DNA of 32,000 nt, from NCBI GenBank assembly GCA_000091165.1, contig FP565575.1, positions 2,550,001-2,582,000 on the forward strand. Reading direction: 5' to 3'. Made by a program: the position numbers and the translations under genes. Of this stretch, positions 18,719 to 27,147 are shown piece by piece. The stretch's first letter is position 1, and each line of letters opens with the position of its first letter. The notes under the pieces are model-generated. The model searched no databases. It had not been told where the DNA came from and worked only from the letters and a program-made list of their open reading frames with translations. The stretch is from Candidatus Methylomirabilis oxygeniifera. GTDB taxonomy: Bacteria > Methylomirabilota > Methylomirabilia > Methylomirabilales > Methylomirabilaceae.

Positions 18719-18753
18719 AGCTTTCAGCAGTCAGCGGTCAGCAATCAGCTTCA
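18719..18753 (-). repeat. Heptamer array (5 units), AGCNNTC on + strand = GANNGCT in thrB sense
   Basis: AGCTTTC AGCAGTC AGCGGTC AGCAATC AGCTTCA. In the thrB orientation it ends 22 nt upstream of the thrB ATG. Confidence 0.85.
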
Positions 18754-18759
18754 AACAAA

Positions 18760-18867
18760 CCCCCCTGACCCCCCTTTCCTAAAAAAGGGGGGGATTTTTC
18801 AGGTGTGCCTTTCTCAAAAAGGGGGATATTTTTCACCTCCCCCTTTCGTAAAGGGGGATTGCGGGGG
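18760..18867. repeat. C-run/G-run hairpin cluster (three hairpins of one design)
   Basis: C6-tga, then three hairpins: CCCCCCTTT-cctaaa-AAAGGGGGG (18769-18792), CCTTT-ctcaa-AAAGG (18808-18822, degenerate) and CCCCCTTT-cgt-AAAGGGGG (18839-18857). Each is followed by a T-run on the + strand. No gene ends here on either strand. Confidence 0.85.
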
Positions 18868-20641: not shown

Positions 20642-21910
20642 CTAATTTTTGGAGATATGAAACGCCCCATGTATTCTTCGCCAGGTTCCATCCCTCCACA
20701 GCAACTGGAGACGCCGGTTGAGGTATCTCAGGGGACGATACACGTAGTAGAAAGGCAACAACCATGAACGATTCACGTGGTAGACCGAACGTAAGTAGCT
20801 GGGCGAGGGGCACAATATCCACTTGACAATAAGTGCCCGAGAGCGCCAACCTCCACCGATCTGAATCAGGCGATTCAGATCAAGCCGGGAACCTGCGAGG
20901 GCTGCCGACAAAGCGGTCTCGCATCCAATCGCGTCGGTTTGTGAGGCGGCGTCCCAAAGGCGATCCAGAGCGGCTTGAGGGACCGGGGCGTTGAGTTCTT
21001 CGACTAAATAGTCCAGCGTGACTGACAGAGGCAGCGCGAGGCGGCTCTGGACCGCGCTCTCCGTCACGACTTGCCAGTCCAGATTCGGATATCGAGCCAC
21101 GAGATTCCAAGCGTCCGGAACCCAGCGCAGCGACTCACGACTGGCCGGACAAGAAGCAGCCTGGATACACACGTGCACAAGATTGTCGGCCGGAGAAAGG
21201 ACGTGGGCAGGAACCCCTGCGATGGACTGCCTCCGTCTGCGTCTCCACAGGTGTTCGAACGGCGCATCATACTGCGGCACACGAAACAGACGCCGGTGCA
21301 GCAGAAGCGGAAGCCCTGAATCGTGTATCCATGTGGCCGGTCTCGTCTCGGGATCTTCTGCCTCTCCGGAGCGGCGATATCCCATGGGAGGCAGGAGCGA
21401 CGCCGCACGCATGAGGTCGTCATCGGTCGGCAAGAGGATGTCGATATCGTGGCAGTGTCGAAGCACGGGATCAGCGTAAACCGTATCGGCAAGCGCAGCC
21501 CCCTTGCACACGATATATGACACATCGTGAGCGTTTAACGTGGAAAGGACGTCTCGAAGGATACGACGATAGATGTTGCTGCGCAGTTCTTCTCTGACAT
21601 ATGCGGTTCGAAAATGGGTGCGAAGTGCCGTGTCTACCGCAATGTCGTTGCGGCGAAGCGCCGCTAGGAGCAGCGGAACCAGCGTCTTCAGCCCTTGTTT
21701 ACTCTTGAGCAGCGCGTGGACCGGATCGTCTACCAGCGTACGGTACACATCCCAGCCCCGGCGTCCCGATTCACCCGAGTACAGACAGGCGCGCAATAAC
21801 CATGTGTGCTCCGGCGCCGGCAGGATGACTGAGAGCGCATGCGACAGGGCTGACTTCAAGACGGGTGTCTTCCCTCCTATGACCGTGGCCGGCCTCTCAT
21901 CGGTCCGCAC
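20642..21910 (-). CDS. Nucleotidyltransferase-family protein (NTP_transf_5 / PF14907-like), last gene of accessory operon
   Basis: 422 aa; GTG start overlaps the GT2 gene end by 14 nt. The motif GAALADTVYADPVLRHCHDIDILLPTDDDL resembles the 'uncharacterised nucleotidyltransferase' family (from memory). Paralogue of 25718-26794. Confidence 0.75.
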   Translation of the reverse strand: MRTDERPATVIGGKTPVLKSALSHALSVILPAPEHTWLLRACLYSGESGRRGWDVYRTLVDDPVHALLKSKQGLKTLVPLLLAALRRNDIAVDTALRTHFRTAYVREELRSNIYRRILRDVLSTLNAHDVSYIVCKGAALADTVYADPVLRHCHDIDILLPTDDDLMRAASLLPPMGYRRSGEAEDPETRPATWIHDSGLPLLLHRRLFRVPQYDAPFEHLWRRRRRQSIAGVPAHVLSPADNLVHVCIQAASCPASRESLRWVPDAWNLVARYPNLDWQVVTESAVQSRLALPLSVTLDYLVEELNAPVPQAALDRLWDAASQTDAIGCETALSAALAGSRLDLNRLIQIGGGWRSRALIVKWILCPSPSYLRSVYHVNRSWLLPFYYVYRPLRYLNRRLQLLWRDGTWRRIHGAFHISKN

Positions 21911-22682
21911 AACCCGACGAGCCGTTCTCAGCGTCCTGGACTGACGGTTGCGCGTGTGACCCTTTGACCTCGGGCTGAGAAGGCGCTGCCCTCATGGGAC
22001 GACGCCGGCGATCAAGGGCGGCCTTCAGGATATGCAGGTATTCCTCTCGACTGTCGGTGGCTTGGCGGCGACTGATGTTAGAGCGATGGATGCGGTGATA
22101 CGCGAGCACGTCGGGCAACAACTCGACGACTGCCCGATGCTCAATCGCACGGATAAACCATTCCGTGTCGTCTGCATGCCATAACGTCGCATTGAACCGA
22201 CCCACCGCATTAAAGAGGGCGGATCGCACCAAAAGTGAGCCGGTGAAATACCCGGGCATCGGCTGACTACGACGGTGGTTCCTGTAACGTGCGGCCTCTT
22301 CGATGAGTTCAGGAATCCAGAAATTCTGTACATACGTGATACACAGGTCAAGGTCTGGACGAGCCTGGAATCGAGACATCTGGCGGGTCAACTTCTCCGG
22401 GTGCCACAGGTCATCCGCATCGAGAAAGCCCACAAACTCACCATGCGCCGCACGCAGTCCAAGATTCCGCGCGGCTGCGGGTCCCGAGTTGGCCTGCCAC
22501 AGATAATGGACCTGATCACCGAAGCCGGCCACGATCGCCGCTGTCCCGTCGGTCGAGCCATCGTCAGCGACGATAATCTCCAGTGGCCGGTAGGTCTGCG
22601 CCCGGATACTCTCTAACGCCTCGCGCAAGTAGCGTTCGCCGTTGAGGACGGGGATGATGCAACTCACCAAACTCGGTGTCAT
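21897..22682 (-). CDS. Family 2 glycosyltransferase
   Basis: 261 aa; VSCIIPVLNGERYLREALESIRAQTY...IIVADDGSTDGT...FLDADD (DxD). ATG overlaps the kinase stop (ATGA). Confidence 0.88.
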   Translation of the reverse strand: MTPSLVSCIIPVLNGERYLREALESIRAQTYRPLEIIVADDGSTDGTAAIVAGFGDQVHYLWQANSGPAAARNLGLRAAHGEFVGFLDADDLWHPEKLTRQMSRFQARPDLDLCITYVQNFWIPELIEEAARYRNHRRSQPMPGYFTGSLLVRSALFNAVGRFNATLWHADDTEWFIRAIEHRAVVELLPDVLAYHRIHRSNISRRQATDSREEYLHILKAALDRRRRPMRAAPSQPEVKGSHAQPSVQDAENGSSGCADR

Positions 22683-23821
22683 ATCCGCGTTACTTCAGCC
22701 AACAGGTCGTCGACACGATGGGGGATCTCGGTAAGATCACGCCCCAGCTCCAGCCAGTAACTTGGCACGCGCTCGACCAATCGAGCCAGCATCTGGAGGT
22801 CGCGCACTCCAGGCCGTGGCGCCAGCGTCAGAAGAGAGCTGGGTGCAAGCCGCAGCAGGGCATCGACCTTGGACGCAGGACGGCATCGCGTCGTATGGGC
22901 ATCCACGATGCGGGGAATCGCCAGGACGCGGATGGGGACACTACGCGGGAGTTGCTTTGGAAAAAGAGGTGCAAGCAGAACGAGACATTTGTTTTCCTCG
23001 GGACGACTACTGCGAATGGCATGCGGAGGAAGGAGTGGGAAGTGTGCCATATGGTCCGGCTCCAACCAGGTAGAATTGTACAGGCTGTGACCTATGAAAG
23101 AGCCGTCCGCCAGAACCTGCAAGCCGGTATAGTCATCGCCAAGGTAATCAAAGCCGCCAACCAGACAGGCCAATGTCGAGGTGGACTTGCCCGATCCACC
23201 CATGCCGGGAAAGAGCACGCCGCGGCCGTTTCGGGAAACCAGGCCGGAATGGATCACCCGCATATCTCGGTCGTGATACCACAAGGATAAAAGCAGGAGC
23301 AGCGGTTTCCCACGTTCGTAGAGCGAGAGAGCCTTGCTGGATACCGTCCAACCCACTACGTGCTGAGCCTTCCTATCAAGCCATGTTCTTGATTGCCGAA
23401 GTCCATGTCCGACAAAGCGACCATCGGCAGAGGCCGTCAAGATCCCGTTTCCCACATCCCATGTCGACCCGATATGATCATGTGCCGGAACAACCGGACA
23501 AGGGATACCCGAGTCCTGCTCATCCCACAGGTCAATGGCAAGCTGCGTGGCGGACGGCGGCGCCCCACTGGCCTCCAGATGGGCAATTGGGCGACGGAAA
23601 TGTTGAGCGAGTTCGCGCCCGACAATACGAACGCGCACCTTCAGGTCGGCGAAGCGATACTGGGCTTCGCAGACATCATTCGGATTGTTGAAGGCGGCCT
23701 TCGCAAATGCCGTCTCCATGGCGGCAAACGCGCCCTTACCGTGTTGCGCAATCGATAAGTCCGGCGCCCCCGTACCGCCGATGCGTCCCGGTTGCCCTGT
23801 TGTCTCCTTCATGCCCGACAT
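22679..23821 (-). CDS. HPr-kinase-related P-loop kinase (HprK-related kinase A-like)
   Basis: 380 aa. The C-terminal half carries VIHSGLVSRNGRGVLFPGMGGSGKSTSTLA, that is beta-strand, Gly-rich turn and Walker A as in the HprK/P catalytic domain. The N-terminal 190 aa or so are unassigned. It starts 11 nt after the PqqD-like gene. Confidence 0.75.
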   Translation of the reverse strand: MSGMKETTGQPGRIGGTGAPDLSIAQHGKGAFAAMETAFAKAAFNNPNDVCEAQYRFADLKVRVRIVGRELAQHFRRPIAHLEASGAPPSATQLAIDLWDEQDSGIPCPVVPAHDHIGSTWDVGNGILTASADGRFVGHGLRQSRTWLDRKAQHVVGWTVSSKALSLYERGKPLLLLLSLWYHDRDMRVIHSGLVSRNGRGVLFPGMGGSGKSTSTLACLVGGFDYLGDDYTGLQVLADGSFIGHSLYNSTWLEPDHMAHFPLLPPHAIRSSRPEENKCLVLLAPLFPKQLPRSVPIRVLAIPRIVDAHTTRCRPASKVDALLRLAPSSLLTLAPRPGVRDLQMLARLVERVPSYWLELGRDLTEIPHRVDDLLAEVTRI

Positions 23822-23832
23822 ACTGTCCGTGG

Positions 23833-24285
23833 TTAACCTGTTGACCTATCGGTAGATTCTTTCCAGGGGATTTCATTGAAGCTCGGCATGGGTGGATCAA
23901 GCGCAAGAAGCTCGCTCATATCACGATAGATGTTGAGCTGTGGCGATTCATAGACTAGTCTCGACTCGGGGTGTCTTTCCTCACTGACCTGAGGCGGCCG
24001 CACATCATCCGCAACGGTGATCAAGCCTTCCGAAATGAGCTCCTCCACCACCCGCTTGACATCGGCCTGTACCTGTTCTGCCGAAACATCATAGCGCGCG
24101 CTTGCGGCAGCGGCAGCCTCTGCAAGACTATGACCCCCTGTGATTATCGCCCACAGAAAACCTCCAACCTTATCCATACTGTAATACACCCCGGTGGACA
24201 GGTTGATCATAATCGCCTCTCCATCGAGGACCTGAGCAGTGACCTCTGTATCATTGAGGCGAAAGCGACTTTGCAACGTCAACAT
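23833..24285 (-). CDS. PqqD-family (RRE-type) protein with 59-aa C-terminal extension
   Basis: ATG 24285 is preceded by GGGAGG at 6-nt spacing; the ORF-track start 24411 would run 160 nt into the GT4 gene. Residues 1-91 look like PqqD: FRLNDTEVTAQVLDGEAIMINLSTGVYYSMDKVGGFLWAII..SLAEAAAAASARYDVSAEQVQADVKRVVEELISEGLI. 150 aa. Confidence 0.75.
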   Translation of the reverse strand: MLTLQSRFRLNDTEVTAQVLDGEAIMINLSTGVYYSMDKVGGFLWAIITGGHSLAEAAAAASARYDVSAEQVQADVKRVVEELISEGLITVADDVRPPQVSEERHPESRLVYESPQLNIYRDMSELLALDPPMPSFNEIPWKESTDRSTG

Positions 24286-25396
24286 GAATAGCCTCCCGAG
24301 TGAGTTCCCCGTAAAGCGCGGCATAGGCATCCACACAGCGTTCCCAGCAGAACATCTTGCGCGCCCAACGACGCCCCGCTTGGCCCATCTGAGCAGCCAT
24401 GTTCCGGTCAATAATCAGAGCTGAAATCGCCTCAGCGAGGGCCTTACTATCGTCTGGCTCGACAAGCAGTCCGGTCTCGTTGTGCGCCACGACCTCCGGA
24501 AGTCCGCCGACGCGTGTGGCCACGATAGGGCGAGCCATTAGGGCCGCCTCCAGGGCCACCAGTCCGAATCCCTCACGCCGAGACGGCATCACGACAACCG
24601 TGGTGGTGTTCATCAGACCCGGCACCTTGTGCGGAGCTACCCATCCAATGAAATCGACGGACTCAGCAAGCCCAAGTTCGGCTGTCTGCCGCTCCAATGC
24701 GGGTCGTGCAGGCCCATTCCCCGCAATGATGAGACGAGCACGAGGGAAAGCATCGCGTAACAACGCAAAAGCCTCTAACGCTAAATCAAATCCTTTTTCT
24801 TCAGAGAGTCGCCCCAGACACAGTAATCGTGGGGCGCCATGCGGCAGGGGCTCCGGAGAGACGGCAGGCACGTCCATGGCGTTATAAATAAGGGAGGAGC
24901 GGGGGATGATCTCCGGCACCTGCCGGCGGGATTCCGCAAGAACGGCTGCCGAGTTGGCGGTGACCCAATCGGCATTACGTAGCGCCTGTTCTACTAACGT
25001 ATCACGCCCGGTAACGTGAATCGGAAAGGATGCGTGTTTGGTCAGCAGTACCGGCGCTGAGTATGTCGTAGCGGTAGCCAAGTGAAAGAACACGGTTGGT
25101 CCGCTGAAGTTGATATGAATCACATCCGGCTTGAAGTGTTGCTTGAGGCTGGCGACTCGTTGCCGCACCTCTATCAACTGACGCAGGCCGCTTGGCGCCA
25201 GCGCTTCAAAGAAGGGGAAGCGGAACACGGGAATCCCCTTGTAGTGATCTTCGTCCGGCAGACTCAAGCCATCGTGGGCCGTCACGACAATAACCTCATG
25301 GCCGCGCGTCCGAAACGCCTGAACTAATCTTGTGGCTATAACCTCGACTCCCCCAATGTAGGGCCAAAACTTTTCCGACCAGTACATGACGCGCAT
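24251..25396 (-). CDS. Family 4 (GT-B, GT1-superfamily) glycosyltransferase, first gene of accessory operon
   Basis: 381 aa; ATG 25396 after GGAGAAAGA. C-terminal domain VVMPSRREGFGLVALEAALMARPIVATRVGGLPEVV...GLLVEPDD is the classic GT4 E-x7-E region. Confidence 0.88.
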   Translation of the reverse strand: MRVMYWSEKFWPYIGGVEVIATRLVQAFRTRGHEVIVVTAHDGLSLPDEDHYKGIPVFRFPFFEALAPSGLRQLIEVRQRVASLKQHFKPDVIHINFSGPTVFFHLATATTYSAPVLLTKHASFPIHVTGRDTLVEQALRNADWVTANSAAVLAESRRQVPEIIPRSSLIYNAMDVPAVSPEPLPHGAPRLLCLGRLSEEKGFDLALEAFALLRDAFPRARLIIAGNGPARPALERQTAELGLAESVDFIGWVAPHKVPGLMNTTTVVVMPSRREGFGLVALEAALMARPIVATRVGGLPEVVAHNETGLLVEPDDSKALAEAISALIIDRNMAAQMGQAGRRWARKMFCWERCVDAYAALYGELTREAIHVDVAKSLSPQ

Positions 25397-25717
25397 TCTT
25401 TCTCCGGGCTTCCCCGCATCGCTACACCGGTTCCGGTTCCGTCATCCGGCGCCGGCGCTCACTGCATGCCCACCCCGTCCGATACCGCCGAGGCGATCAG
25501 GCGTAAACGTATCATAGTGATCATGATGCCACAAGCCCAGCTTTCTCAATCATGCGGCAGGACTTGAACCTCTCTTGCGGATTCCGGTTGACGGGCGTAT
25601 TGGCGGCGGAGTACCTTCAGTTACGGATAATCGTGAGCTATACCCGTGCCGGATAGGCGCCTTCTCGACGAACGCGCTTGATCTCCACGGTGTTGAGGGG
25701 ACTCACCCGCTGACTCA

Positions 25718-26794
25718 ATGTTATCGAGGATGAATGTCTCGCCAGAGGGAACCGCACTATTAACCTTAGTAAGGGCCGCCCTGTCGGAATCTCCCCTCGA
25801 GACGGAAAGTTTACCCTCTGCTCTCGATTGGAATACTGTTCTACAATTGGCTCGTCACCATCGACTTGAGCCGTTGCTCCATTACGGTCTCCGGCATACC
25901 GGGTTCACGGACATCCCGAACAGGGTTCGCGCAGAGTGGGAGATGCGGCGTCGCATGTCGATCGTCAGTAGCATGTATCATCAGGCGGCCCTCAACGACA
26001 TCGCGGCGGCGTTCGGGGATCGCGGCGTCCCGTTTGTTCTCTTGAAGGGCGAAGGGCTTTCAAGGGCGCTATATCCCCAAGAGGGTTTGCGCCCCTATGG
26101 TGACATCGATCTGCTCGTTCGACCGGAAACCTACGAGATGGCAAAGGTGATTCTGATGGGGCTGGGATTTCGGCTCCGACGGGCTGCCAAGGAGGCGGAA
26201 AGGCTCCGTCTGTTCGGAGAAATTGAGTTCGATAGAGAGGGTCCCATAACCGTAACGGTGGACCTCCACTGGAACACGTTGATGACCTCCTGGGAGCCTC
26301 GATCTCTGCTCACCGATAACGAGACGTGGGCCTCCCTTGGTCACGTTCGTCTGGGGAATCGTACCATACCGATTCTCAAAGGAGAAGCCCTCCTGATCTA
26401 CCTCTGCGTTCATTTCGCCTTTCATCACGTATTTGATGGGTTGTTGCTGCTTTGCGATCTCTATCTGATTCTCAGGCGCTATGCTGAAAGGACCGACTGG
26501 GATCGCCTCATTGCGATGACCGACCGATATCAATGTCGGCATGCGCTCTATTATTCCCTCTTCTTTGTCAAATCGCTCATGGAGGCCCCTGTGCCGAATC
26601 CCATTCTCGATTCGTTGCGGCCAAACGCGATGATCCGGGTCCTTATGCCGACCACTCGGATGCTCCTTCGAGATAGCTTGACCCCACAGATGCTGGAACG
26701 GTATGTGAAGCTTCTCTTGATCGATACTCAGAGGGGGCGTTGGCGGGCGCTACAGGCCTGGCTTCGATCCAGCAAACAACTGTTCGGTAGGTGA
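25718..26794 (+). CDS. Nucleotidyltransferase-family protein (NTP_transf_5 / PF14907-like), divergent paralogue
   Basis: 358 aa; VLLKGEGLSRALYPQEGLRPYGDIDLLVRPETYEMAKVILMGLGF matches the motif and layout of 20642-21910. Confidence 0.78.
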   Translation: MLSRMNVSPEGTALLTLVRAALSESPLETESLPSALDWNTVLQLARHHRLEPLLHYGLRHTGFTDIPNRVRAEWEMRRRMSIVSSMYHQAALNDIAAAFGDRGVPFVLLKGEGLSRALYPQEGLRPYGDIDLLVRPETYEMAKVILMGLGFRLRRAAKEAERLRLFGEIEFDREGPITVTVDLHWNTLMTSWEPRSLLTDNETWASLGHVRLGNRTIPILKGEALLIYLCVHFAFHHVFDGLLLLCDLYLILRRYAERTDWDRLIAMTDRYQCRHALYYSLFFVKSLMEAPVPNPILDSLRPNAMIRVLMPTTRMLLRDSLTPQMLERYVKLLLIDTQRGRWRALQAWLRSSKQLFGR

Positions 26795-26899
26795 CAGAAG
26801 CCCCGTATCCGACTCATCCCGCAACAACAGAATAGGTTTGGAATGGTTCGGAGTAGGCAGGCAGGCGTTGTGCTGTCCGGAACACTGCAGAGGTTGGGC

Positions 26900-26928
26900 T
26901 TGACTCGAATCCGCGTATTTCCTATACT
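26900..26928 (+). promoter_or_regulatory. Strong sigma70-type promoter 220 nt upstream of glpX
   Basis: TTGACT (26900-26905), 17-nt spacer, TATACT (26923-26928). Confidence 0.55.
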
Positions 26929-26933
26929 TCTGT

Positions 26934-26956
26934 GGGTTTTACGGGTGTGGGGCGGG
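26934..26956 (+). repeat. G-quadruplex-type motif at the predicted 5' end of the glpX leader
   Basis: GGG-ttttac-GGG-tgt-GGGG-c-GGG, starting 6 nt after the -10 box. Confidence 0.7.
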
Positions 26957-27031
26957 AGTGAACAGAAACGAGCGACTCGCGGCTTCGGACTAGCACCCCC
27001 CATGCGCCGCCGCCACTCCACGGCATACAAA

Positions 27032-27117
27032 CCCCCCCAACCCCCCTTTAGCAAAGGGGGGGACCAGAGCGGGGGATTTCTCTGAAGCTGACGGCTGAGT
27101 GCTGATAGCTGACTGCT
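27032..27117 (+). repeat. Composite leader element: C-run, C6TTT/AAAG6 hairpin, G5-T-rich tract, heptamer array
   Basis: C7 (27032-27038), CCCCCCTTT-agc-AAAGGGGGG (27041-27061), GGGGGATTTCTCT (27071-27083), then GAAGCT GACGGCT GAGTGCT GATAGCT GACTGCT (27084-27117). It is collinear with the thrB-sense element at 18719-18793. Confidence 0.85.
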
Positions 27118-27147
27118 ATTCCCCGAGCAGCAGAGAAGAGAGAGACG

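Follow-up and report, generated by a model that had tools for sequence, protein, structure and literature searches.

A widespread gene cassette in Candidatus Methylomirabilis oxygeniifera combines an HprK-like protein, glycosyltransferases and a recognition element that appears fused to its own leader

RiPP recognition elements (RREs), found in pathways for peptides that the ribosome makes and that are modified after translation (RiPPs), are regarded as adaptors whose ligand, the precursor peptide, is a molecule distinct from the RRE. The closest characterised system to the one described here is that of the linear polyphosphorylated peptides (LPP), whose core comprises a discrete RRE, the kinase LppK, the protein LppN, an archaeal-type signal peptidase, an MsbA-like exporter and a separate precursor (Popov et al. 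2026, Nat Commun, PMC13381572). LPP precursors are encoded by separate genes, measure 35–200 amino acids (aa) and carry the motif YxxPxVLxHQxIxFETxxS; LppK polyphosphorylates Ser3 of the RRE-bound precursor LppA and does not phosphorylate the S3T and S3Y variants; and LppN is an NTP_transf_5 (PF14907) protein according to the supplementary data (PMC13381572). The final LPP product is undefined, and the clusters lie in loci rich in capsule and glycosyltransferase (GT) genes and are restricted to Bacillota (PMC13381572). Paeninodin clusters also occur in capsule loci. In the pseudomycoidin pathway, PsmK phosphorylates the C-terminal Ser of the lasso peptide with one or several phosphates, and PsmN, an 'uncharacterised NTP transferase', is required for mass additions of +162/+324 Da, i.e. 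one to two hexoses on the phosphate (Zyubko et al. 2019, PMC6993621). Here, we analyzed a 32,000-nucleotide (nt) stretch of the genome of the methane oxidiser Candidatus Methylomirabilis oxygeniifera (M. oxyfera, phylum NC10; contig FP565575.1, positions 2,550,001 to 2,582,000), hereafter the window, and within it a six-gene cassette, N-b | GT4-P-K-GT2-N-a, at window positions 20642–26794. It encodes a PqqD-like RRE protein (P), an HprK-like P-loop protein (K), two NTP_transf_5 proteins (N-a and N-b) and two glycosyltransferases (GT2 and GT4).

P (23833–24285, minus strand) is a 150-aa PqqD-like protein (PF05402, 5e-16 in Pfam) that appears to be a natural leader-RRE fusion, kept together with K, GT2 and an uncharacterised nucleotidyltransferase in genomes that number in the thousands and range from cyanobacteria to an archaeon. 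This natural fusion is the hallmark that sets apart the RRE/HprK-like/NTP_transf_5 variant described here. To our knowledge, leader-RRE fusions are otherwise confined to protein engineering; none of the papers searched described such a fusion or the gene set of the cassette, and PF14907 came up just once, named briefly in a survey of phosphonates. P proteins are ~140–190 aa long, roughly 60 aa beyond a bare RRE. Alignment and a motif scan of every source revealed the same architecture in 67/67 P sequences: an RRE, a variable linker and a conserved tail with the consensus [Y/F/W]xxPxLxx[Y/F]xDMx[D/E]LLxLDP, always C-terminal to the RRE.

All parts of the window's P can be placed within this scheme (coordinates on the minus strand). 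Residues 1–92 (24010–24285) are a lasso-B1-type, winged-helix RRE of the PqqD family, which reached 4.8e-13 and 49 bits against the NCBIfam model lasso_PqqD_Bac, below its cut-off of 80. The linker, residues 93–111 (23953–24009), is rich in Ala, Pro, Ser and Glu and differs in length and sequence among the 67 homologues. It is followed by the leader-like [Y/F/W]xxPx[L] motif (residues 112–117, YESPQL, 23935–23952), the predicted ligand of the protein's own RRE, in which Pro is conserved in 67/67 sequences, the aromatic residue in 66/67 and Leu in 56/67. Residues 120–131 (YRDMSELLALDP, 23893–23928) constitute the nearly invariant [Y/F]xDMx[D/E]LLxLDP segment, a candidate enzyme-recognition or acceptor segment, in which D0, L7, D8 and P9 are invariant (67/67 sequences) and Met is nearly so (62/67). 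The remaining residues 132–150, with the stop codon (23833–23892), are clade-specific. Two types of tail end were distinguished, type A (IHxVDxxGWP, 51/67) and type B (PMPxLxEIPW, 16/67). The window's P has a type B end (PMPxLxEIPWKE...) that runs into an acidic, Ser-rich C-terminus. We also read the P C-termini of 56 close homologues.

Three independent lines, namely fold comparison, structure prediction and covariation, strongly indicate that the canonical leader groove of the P RRE accommodates this tail motif. Foldseek matched the RRE best to TbiB1 (5v1v, 5v1u) and 6jx3, leader-bound lasso B1 proteins, with a TM-score of about 0.9. In the AlphaFold2 (AF2) model, the predicted local distance difference test (pLDDT) was 91–97 in the RRE, fell to 68–79 in the linker, rose to 96 at residues 111–120 (YESPQLNIY) and was 40–61 beyond; a strand was predicted at residues 118–120 and a short helix at 123–127 (pLDDT about 61). 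Among the columns of the P alignment, the top mutual-information partner of the tail aromatic was a position in RRE helix 3 (D75), four residues before the hydrophobic residue equivalent to the pocket-dividing Phe. A tail Tyr was paired with Asp/Glu at this position in 21/25 sequences (9/13 sequence clusters) and a tail Phe with an acidic residue in 1/32 sequences (1/23 clusters), the other Phe sequences carrying Ala, Ser, Gly or Pro; a tail Trp was paired with Gln in 4/7 sequences. The covariation was significant at the cluster level (Fisher p = 6.6e-5, a statistic that ignores the tree), and the pairing recurred in unrelated clades.

These pairs reproduce contacts seen in crystal structures of systems with separate precursors. 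Tyr-16 of LppA hydrogen-bonds to Asp70 of LppB, with Phe74 four residues on (Popov et al. 2026, PMC13381572), and Trp-15 of PbaA hydrogen-bonds to Gln79 of PbaB1, with Phe83 four residues on. The motif itself corresponds to the leader motif [Y/W]xxPx[L/V/I/F/A] that discrete lasso and LPP RREs recognise (PMC13381572). Since the RRE pocket residue co-varies with the aromatic residue of the protein's own tail, the tail is likely the ligand for which the pocket has been selected.

K (22679–23821, minus strand) is a two-domain, 380-aa P-loop phosphotransferase-like protein of the HprK/PEPCK superfamily. A profile built from 65 K homologues matched HPr kinase/phosphorylase (HprK/P, 1jb1) among Protein Data Bank (PDB) sequences at E = 3e-7, and the alignment was exact across H-x9-G-x4-G-x2-G-x-GKS/T ... 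DD, in agreement with the HprK-like layout that an earlier note on this DNA had read from the sequence. The catalytic-type residues are H191, G209-x-GKST214 and D229-D230 (23132–23251); across the family, neither the His nor the GxxGxGKS/T loop nor the Asp-Asp pair varies. Sequence comparison thus strongly indicates that K keeps the catalytic-type residues of an HprK-type phosphotransferase. The Hpr_kinase_C match that the same note had expected appeared as a weak PF07475 hit in precomputed Pfam annotation, next to a weak PF27840 'ScmC' hit; K had no match in the local Pfam copy. The AF2 model of K was confident (pLDDT 92, predicted TM-score (pTM) 0.90). Its top whole-chain Foldseek matches were ATP-dependent phosphoenolpyruvate carboxykinases (PEPCK; E = 2e-10, both domains, ~400 columns superposed). 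K shares the His, the P-loop and the Asp-Asp pair with HprK/P and the two-domain fold with PEPCK, at a sequence identity of only 10–15%. K differs from both in its N-terminal domain, which is family-specific with invariant residues in an IDLWDE motif, and in a genomic context unrelated to carbon catabolite control or gluconeogenesis.

The earlier note had implicitly treated the cassette as a one-off orphan locus. This view did not survive the database searches, which returned 2,307 K representatives at E <= 1e-30 from a library clustered at 50% identity and placed the family in more than 15 phyla. A scan of one genome per species yielded 80 K loci from NC10, Rokubacteria, Binatia, Gemmatimonadota, Nitrospirota, Planctomycetota, Actinomycetota, Chloroflexota, Acidobacteriota, Cyanobacteria, Cytophagales, Bacteroidales, Alpha-, Beta- and Gammaproteobacteria, Desulfobacterota, Verrucomicrobia and one Woesearchaeote. 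We mapped the gene set with six-frame jackhmmer profiles in 83 sources. Sequence extends at least 600 nt upstream of K in 75 loci, and P was found in 67 of these. Among the 51 well-flanked loci (at least 5 kb on both sides), GT2 was present in 51/51, NTP_transf_5 in 49/51 and GT4 in 31/51, and P, GT2 and NTP_transf_5 all accompanied K in 45/51. P, K, GT2 and NTP_transf_5 therefore form the obligate gene set. Typically, the genes are arranged P>K>GT2(n)>N, with one to five GT2 genes per locus, and GT2 lay directly downstream of K in 46/78 loci. In several genomes, enzyme genes are naturally fused: GT2~K in Burkholderiales and Phycisphaerales (L019:3255-5003, L020:9263-11011, L021:9218-10543), K~GT2 in Rudanella (L058:9977-11824), and GT4~NTP_transf_5 as a 1,145-aa protein in a deltaproteobacterial metagenome-assembled genome (L009:11993-15430). 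The representative search also returned K-containing proteins of 591–832 aa (P0242, P0258, P0346, P0369).

The M. oxyfera locus has relatives in other NC10-type genomes. In two NC10-type loci (L001, L004), orthologues of N-b (65% identity) occupy the same divergent end position and orthologues of N-a (55% identity) end the clusters, with 7–9 glycosyltransferases between the two. Since the N-a and N-b orthologues bound these expanded clusters, the M. oxyfera locus represents a minimal version.

The cassette and LPP have several features in common. Both have a discrete PqqD-type RRE (B1-type fold in P), an HprK-like kinase (K and LppK being compared by family only) and NTP_transf_5 proteins, two in the cassette and LppN in LPP. 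Neither has a macrolactam cyclase, the loci of LPP and of the cassette's relatives are rich in glycosyltransferase or capsule genes, and the motif [Y/W]xxPx[V/L], whose Tyr forms a hydrogen bond with an Asp in helix 3 of the RRE, is common to both. This sharing of PqqD, NTP_transf_5 and HprK-like components upholds the link to PsmK/PsmN-type tailoring that had been proposed from the sequence. The differences are equally clear. The window contains no archaeal-type signal peptidase I (SipW-like) leader peptidase and no MsbA-like exporter; the leader is fused to the RRE, with no separate precursor and no conserved Ser; GT2 is obligate and at times fused to K; and family members occur in more than 15 phyla, in contrast to the Bacillota-only LPP. 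LPP thus goes part of the way towards the case that the earlier note had named as refuting its reading, a homologous cassette that is already characterised; it departs from ours in its separate precursor, its signal-peptidase-like peptidase and the absence of an obligate GT2. From phospho-lasso systems (PadeK, PsmK/PsmN), the cassette shares the HprK-family kinase and the NTP transferase with a B1-type RRE; unlike them, it has no cyclase, B2 peptidase, precursor gene or conserved C-terminal Ser, and carries GT2 and GT4. Of the components of lasso clusters in general, only the B1-type RRE has a counterpart, in P. No asparagine-synthetase-like macrolactam cyclase (C protein) was found in the window, nor a transglutaminase-like B2 peptidase with a short YxxPxL...T precursor, YxxPxL occurring only inside P.

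HprK-like and PqqD-like pairs have likewise been defined, by gene neighbourhood alone, as HprK-related kinase A (TIGR04352/TIGR04353) and SynChlorMet. Matches to the former had been expected for the cassette. K scored 39 bits against TIGR04352, over residues 181–240 only (cut-off 200), and members from Spirosoma, Phormidium and Bryobacteraceae scored 20–48 bits; P had no TIGR04353 hit at E <= 0.01, and its best relative scored 26.9 bits (cut-off 35). For SynChlorMet, ScmC (TIGR04249) scored 16 bits against a cut-off of 125 and ScmD (TIGR04248) 28.7 against 100, and the window has no radical-SAM genes that could be ScmE or ScmF. The cut-off of TIGR04355 was likewise missed, and K scored 18.7 bits against the HPr kinase/phosphorylase equivalog TIGR00679 (cut-off 240). 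On these scores we rejected membership in TIGR04352/TIGR04353 and SynChlorMet, and none of the family members tested reached the cut-off of any curated NCBIfam model. Polysaccharide loci of the Wzx/Wzy or ABC type are also a poor fit, as the window contains no priming phosphoglycosyl transferase, no Wzx/Wzy flippase or polymerase and no Wzm/Wzt exporter. That homologous cassettes always lie in polysaccharide loci is partly true of the relatives and untrue of the window.

The system is related to LPP and to the tailoring half of phosphorylated-lasso pathways, and the filling of the RRE groove by the protein's own tail leads us to infer that P itself is the scaffold or the substrate. We tentatively favour the reading, which we rate somewhat short of an even chance, that a widespread RiPP-like system for glyco-modification is present here in its minimal form, with P in this role. 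Bound to the RRE, the motif would bring either the conserved segment that follows it or the flexible C-terminus into the K active site. By analogy with LppK, PsmK and PadeK, which carry out Ser polyphosphorylation on an RRE-bound precursor, K would phosphorylate the positioned tail, and the NTP_transf_5 proteins with GT2/GT4 may then build a phosphate-linked glycan on P, by analogy with PsmN. In other taxa, adjacent MsbA-type or ABC-2 transporters probably export the product; none is linked to the cassette in M. oxyfera. Several observations weigh against a modified P. The acceptor residue is the weak point: LppK is strictly Ser-specific, and the tail has no position with a conserved Ser or Thr, either among the 67 P sequences or within the NC10-type clade. 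The conserved tail segment resembles a helix for protein-protein docking more than it does a typical variable RiPP core, each locus has a single P gene, and no peptidase is conserved. In the model, the whole-chain fold of K is nearest to PEPCK, a small-molecule kinase. The monomer model of P fits binding in cis and binding between P molecules alike. Finally, the glycosyltransferases, sulfotransferases, epimerases, ABC-2 (Wzm/Wzt-like) transporters and Amj proteins near the relatives are equally typical of lipid-linked glycan pathways.

The missing hydroxyl could be accommodated in a bolder form of the favoured reading, which we regard as unlikely, namely that P is a self-priming 'glycogenin-like' glycan carrier whose own leader fixes one tail position in the K active site. 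D130, the invariant Asp of LDP (D130-P131 at 23893–23898), lies 15 residues after P115, and this spacing equals that between Pro-13 and phospho-Ser3 in LppA. The shared register may be a coincidence or may reflect a differing chemistry; with an Asp in the place of LppA Ser3, Ser-O-phosphate chemistry may have been replaced, by carboxylate activation (acyl phosphate) or another non-canonical acceptor. The NTP_transf_5 proteins and GT2/GT4 would then add a phosphate- or ester-linked, sometimes sulfated glycan for export. The same lack of a conserved hydroxyl acceptor, together with the resemblance of the conserved segment to a short docking helix, also suits a reading in which P is modified by nothing and acts as an adaptor. 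Its cis leader would lock the RRE in the leader-bound state, the DMxDLLxLDP helix would dock K, GT2 or N, and P would serve an enzyme complex as a structural or activating subunit. That complex would phosphorylate and glycosylate an acceptor of a non-peptide kind, such as a lipid-linked or soluble glycan, so that the cassette would derive from a RiPP tailoring set and now act as a modification module of the exopolysaccharide or capsule type. We consider this the main rival and a real, if less than likely, possibility. Partner enzymes in lasso and LPP systems need the leader-bound RRE for activation, the fold of K is nearest to a small-molecule kinase, LPP and paeninodin clusters sit in capsule loci, and the neighbourhoods of the relatives are rich in glycosyltransferases, sulfotransferases, epimerases, short-chain dehydrogenases/reductases (SDRs), polysaccharide deacetylases, ABC-2 transporters and Amj. 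However, no priming phosphoglycosyl transferase, Wzx or Wzy occurs in the window or among the recurrent neighbours, and the experimentally studied relatives of K and N all act on RRE-bound peptides. An RRE, linker and leader with tuned Y/D, W/Q and F/A pairing across more than 15 phyla would, moreover, be a costly docking subunit.

Two further explanations place the substrate outside P or deny the cassette a function. The earlier note had proposed as substrate either a product encoded elsewhere or the tail of P; our results favour the tail as RRE ligand, and a substrate encoded elsewhere is now the less likely of the two. In that scenario, a stronger [Y/W]xxPxL leader would displace an autoinhibitory tail and its bearer would be phospho-glycosylated. 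The absence of a separate precursor from the window, the encoding of LPP precursors by separate genes and the low AF2 confidence after the docked motif, as expected of a displaceable tail, would all fit. The RRE pocket nevertheless varies in step with the tail of the same protein, and we therefore judge this scenario improbable. No recurrent small-ORF (open reading frame) family was found across the 83 loci, and it would be unusual for a module that passes as one piece from phylum to phylum to have its substrate unlinked. A search with a tail-only profile returned solely short ORFs, and those inspected included no genuine stand-alone tail peptide: they begin within helix 3 of the RRE or come directly after a PqqD fragment on frameshift-broken contigs, and we rejected them as artefacts. 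The last explanation, that the cassette is a decaying, non-functional lasso or LPP remnant, could draw on the missing cyclase or peptidase, precursor and exporter, i.e. the absent core genes of both systems, and on a GC content slightly under that of the flanks. It is very unlikely because the genes are intact and widely conserved: all six ORFs are tightly coupled and keep their catalytic-type motifs, the gene set recurs across bacteria and in one archaeal genome (about 2,300 sequence clusters), and orthologues of N-b and N-a bound the expanded clusters of other NC10-type genomes.

With P as candidate, the substrate question is narrowed to a defined 150-aa protein within a compact six-gene system in M. 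oxyfera. The cassette thereby bears on a question posed by the pseudomycoidin and LPP studies, namely what NTP_transf_5 enzymes and their glycosyltransferase partners produce. Many 'polysaccharide-looking' loci may make protein-linked phosphoglycans. If P were a glycogenin-like carrier, it would be the first natural RRE-leader fusion and would open a way to surface or secreted glycoconjugates that is primed by a protein and works without a lipid carrier.

We compared 130 non-core neighbours from 77 related loci with Pfam, which matched 100 families, led by ABC_tran (10), ABC_membrane (7), sulfotransferase (6), Amj (5), SDR (5), epimerase (4) and HD domain (4). The 25 most frequent of these families (down to two members each) included no priming transferase, Wzx, Wzy, lasso enzyme or peptidase. 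ABC exporters were the commonest accessory genes: an MsbA-like exporter, absent from the window, was present in 12/83 related loci, ABC-2 permease/ATPase pairs in 12, and Amj in 5–6. An Asn_synthase gene was found in only three related loci. In Cytophagales, Amj (1.6e-80 in Pfam) directly follows P-K-GT2-GT2-N (L024:13522-14328, L029:13521-14324, L032:13519-14325, L027, L058, L063). Amj, 'alternate to MurJ', is a lipid II flippase family, and its position may point, for these bacteria, to an intermediate linked to lipid or to a flippase put to new use.

The order of the core genes varies among relatives. P does not adjoin K in four Anabaena/Dolichospermum loci (L035, L040, L041, L043) and in L057, L059, L074 and L081. 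The cyanobacterial order is N-GT2-GT2-N-ABC2 permease-ABC ATPase-K-sulfotransferases ... P, and that of Sphingomonadales and Gammaproteobacteria N-P-GT2-N-ABC2 permease ... K; loci with these alternative orders keep all four core components within about 10 kb. A subgroup (L002, L006, L007, L013 and also L014) has two tandem K paralogues together with radical SAM/SPASM, AsnB-type asparagine synthase, HD-domain and SGL-family genes. P was not found in the examined sequence of L002, L006 and L007, and the sequence of L013 starts at K; the subgroup may be a different variant of the system. In two long-read metagenome contigs (L083:5756-6141, L084:5768-6210), frameshifts split P into a PqqD fragment and a 'tail' ORF of 46–69 aa, and neighbouring genes are also broken into pieces. 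Such ORFs could be mistaken for stand-alone precursors in automated RiPP mining.

At the M. oxyfera locus itself, the six ORFs, their coordinates, overlaps and junctions were as the earlier note had described them, and Pfam bore out its GT4, PqqD, GT2 and NTP_transf_5 assignments. The five-gene minus-strand operon is headed by GT4 (24251–25396), a 381-aa GT-B-fold glycosyltransferase (Glycos_transf_1, 1e-44; Glyco_transf_4, 2.6e-22). P, the second gene, overlaps it by 35 nt and has a GGGAGG sequence 7 nt 5' of its ATG (24285). An 11-nt gap separates the P stop codon from the K ATG at 23821, and K overlaps the next gene through ATGA at 22682–22679. This gene, GT2 (21897–22682), encodes a 261-aa GT-A-fold glycosyltransferase with a DADD motif (PF00535, 8e-35). 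N-a (20642–21910) closes the operon; its GTG start (21910) and the stop of GT2 overlap by 14 nt, and it encodes a 422-aa NTP_transf_5 nucleotidyltransferase-fold protein with an HDIDIL motif (PF14907, 5.7e-38). The minus-strand genes of the cassette are thus translationally coupled. N-b (25718–26794, plus strand) is divergent and forms the other end of the cluster; it is a 358-aa NTP_transf_5 nucleotidyltransferase-fold protein with a GDIDLL metal motif (PF14907, 4.8e-54). N-a and N-b, previously regarded as paralogues, do belong to the same family but are only 23% identical, which points to ancient paralogues and not to a recent duplication. The 321-nt region between GT4 and N-b (25397–25717) is presumed to contain the promoters; it has one weak sigma-70-like match (25549–25520, minus strand) and no Rfam match. 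Inspection of the sequence and of the small-ORF listing revealed no conserved small ORF in this region or in the intergenic region at 26795–27147.

The cassette is flanked by thrB, proC, a DUF167/yggU gene, glpX, hisS and aspS, and the remainder of the window is housekeeping (parB, mnmA, ATP synthase, DAHP synthase, uvrC, typA). None of the other related loci compared shares these flanking genes. No cyclase, peptidase, exporter, integrase, transposase, tRNA or Rfam family was detected in the 32-kb window, in line with the earlier observations that the locus holds no cyclase, leader peptidase, exporter, Wzx/Wzy or priming transferase and that no integrase, transposase or tRNA lies at the borders of the cassette. 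The GC content of the cassette is 0.557–0.605, compared with 0.61–0.63 in the flanks. We looked for the marks of a mobile island and found no tRNA, integrase or transposase; GC-rich repeats occur nearby. These repeats are two copies, 77% identical, of an element CAAACAAACCCCCC...CCCCCCTTT...AAAGGGGGG (18752–18790 and 27024–27062). One copy lies between thrB and proC and the other between N-b and glpX, positions that do not match the borders of the cassette exactly, and both yield spurious ORFs that translate to 'PPFLKGG...'. The element is probably a genome-wide intergenic repeat of the repetitive extragenic palindromic (REP)-like kind.

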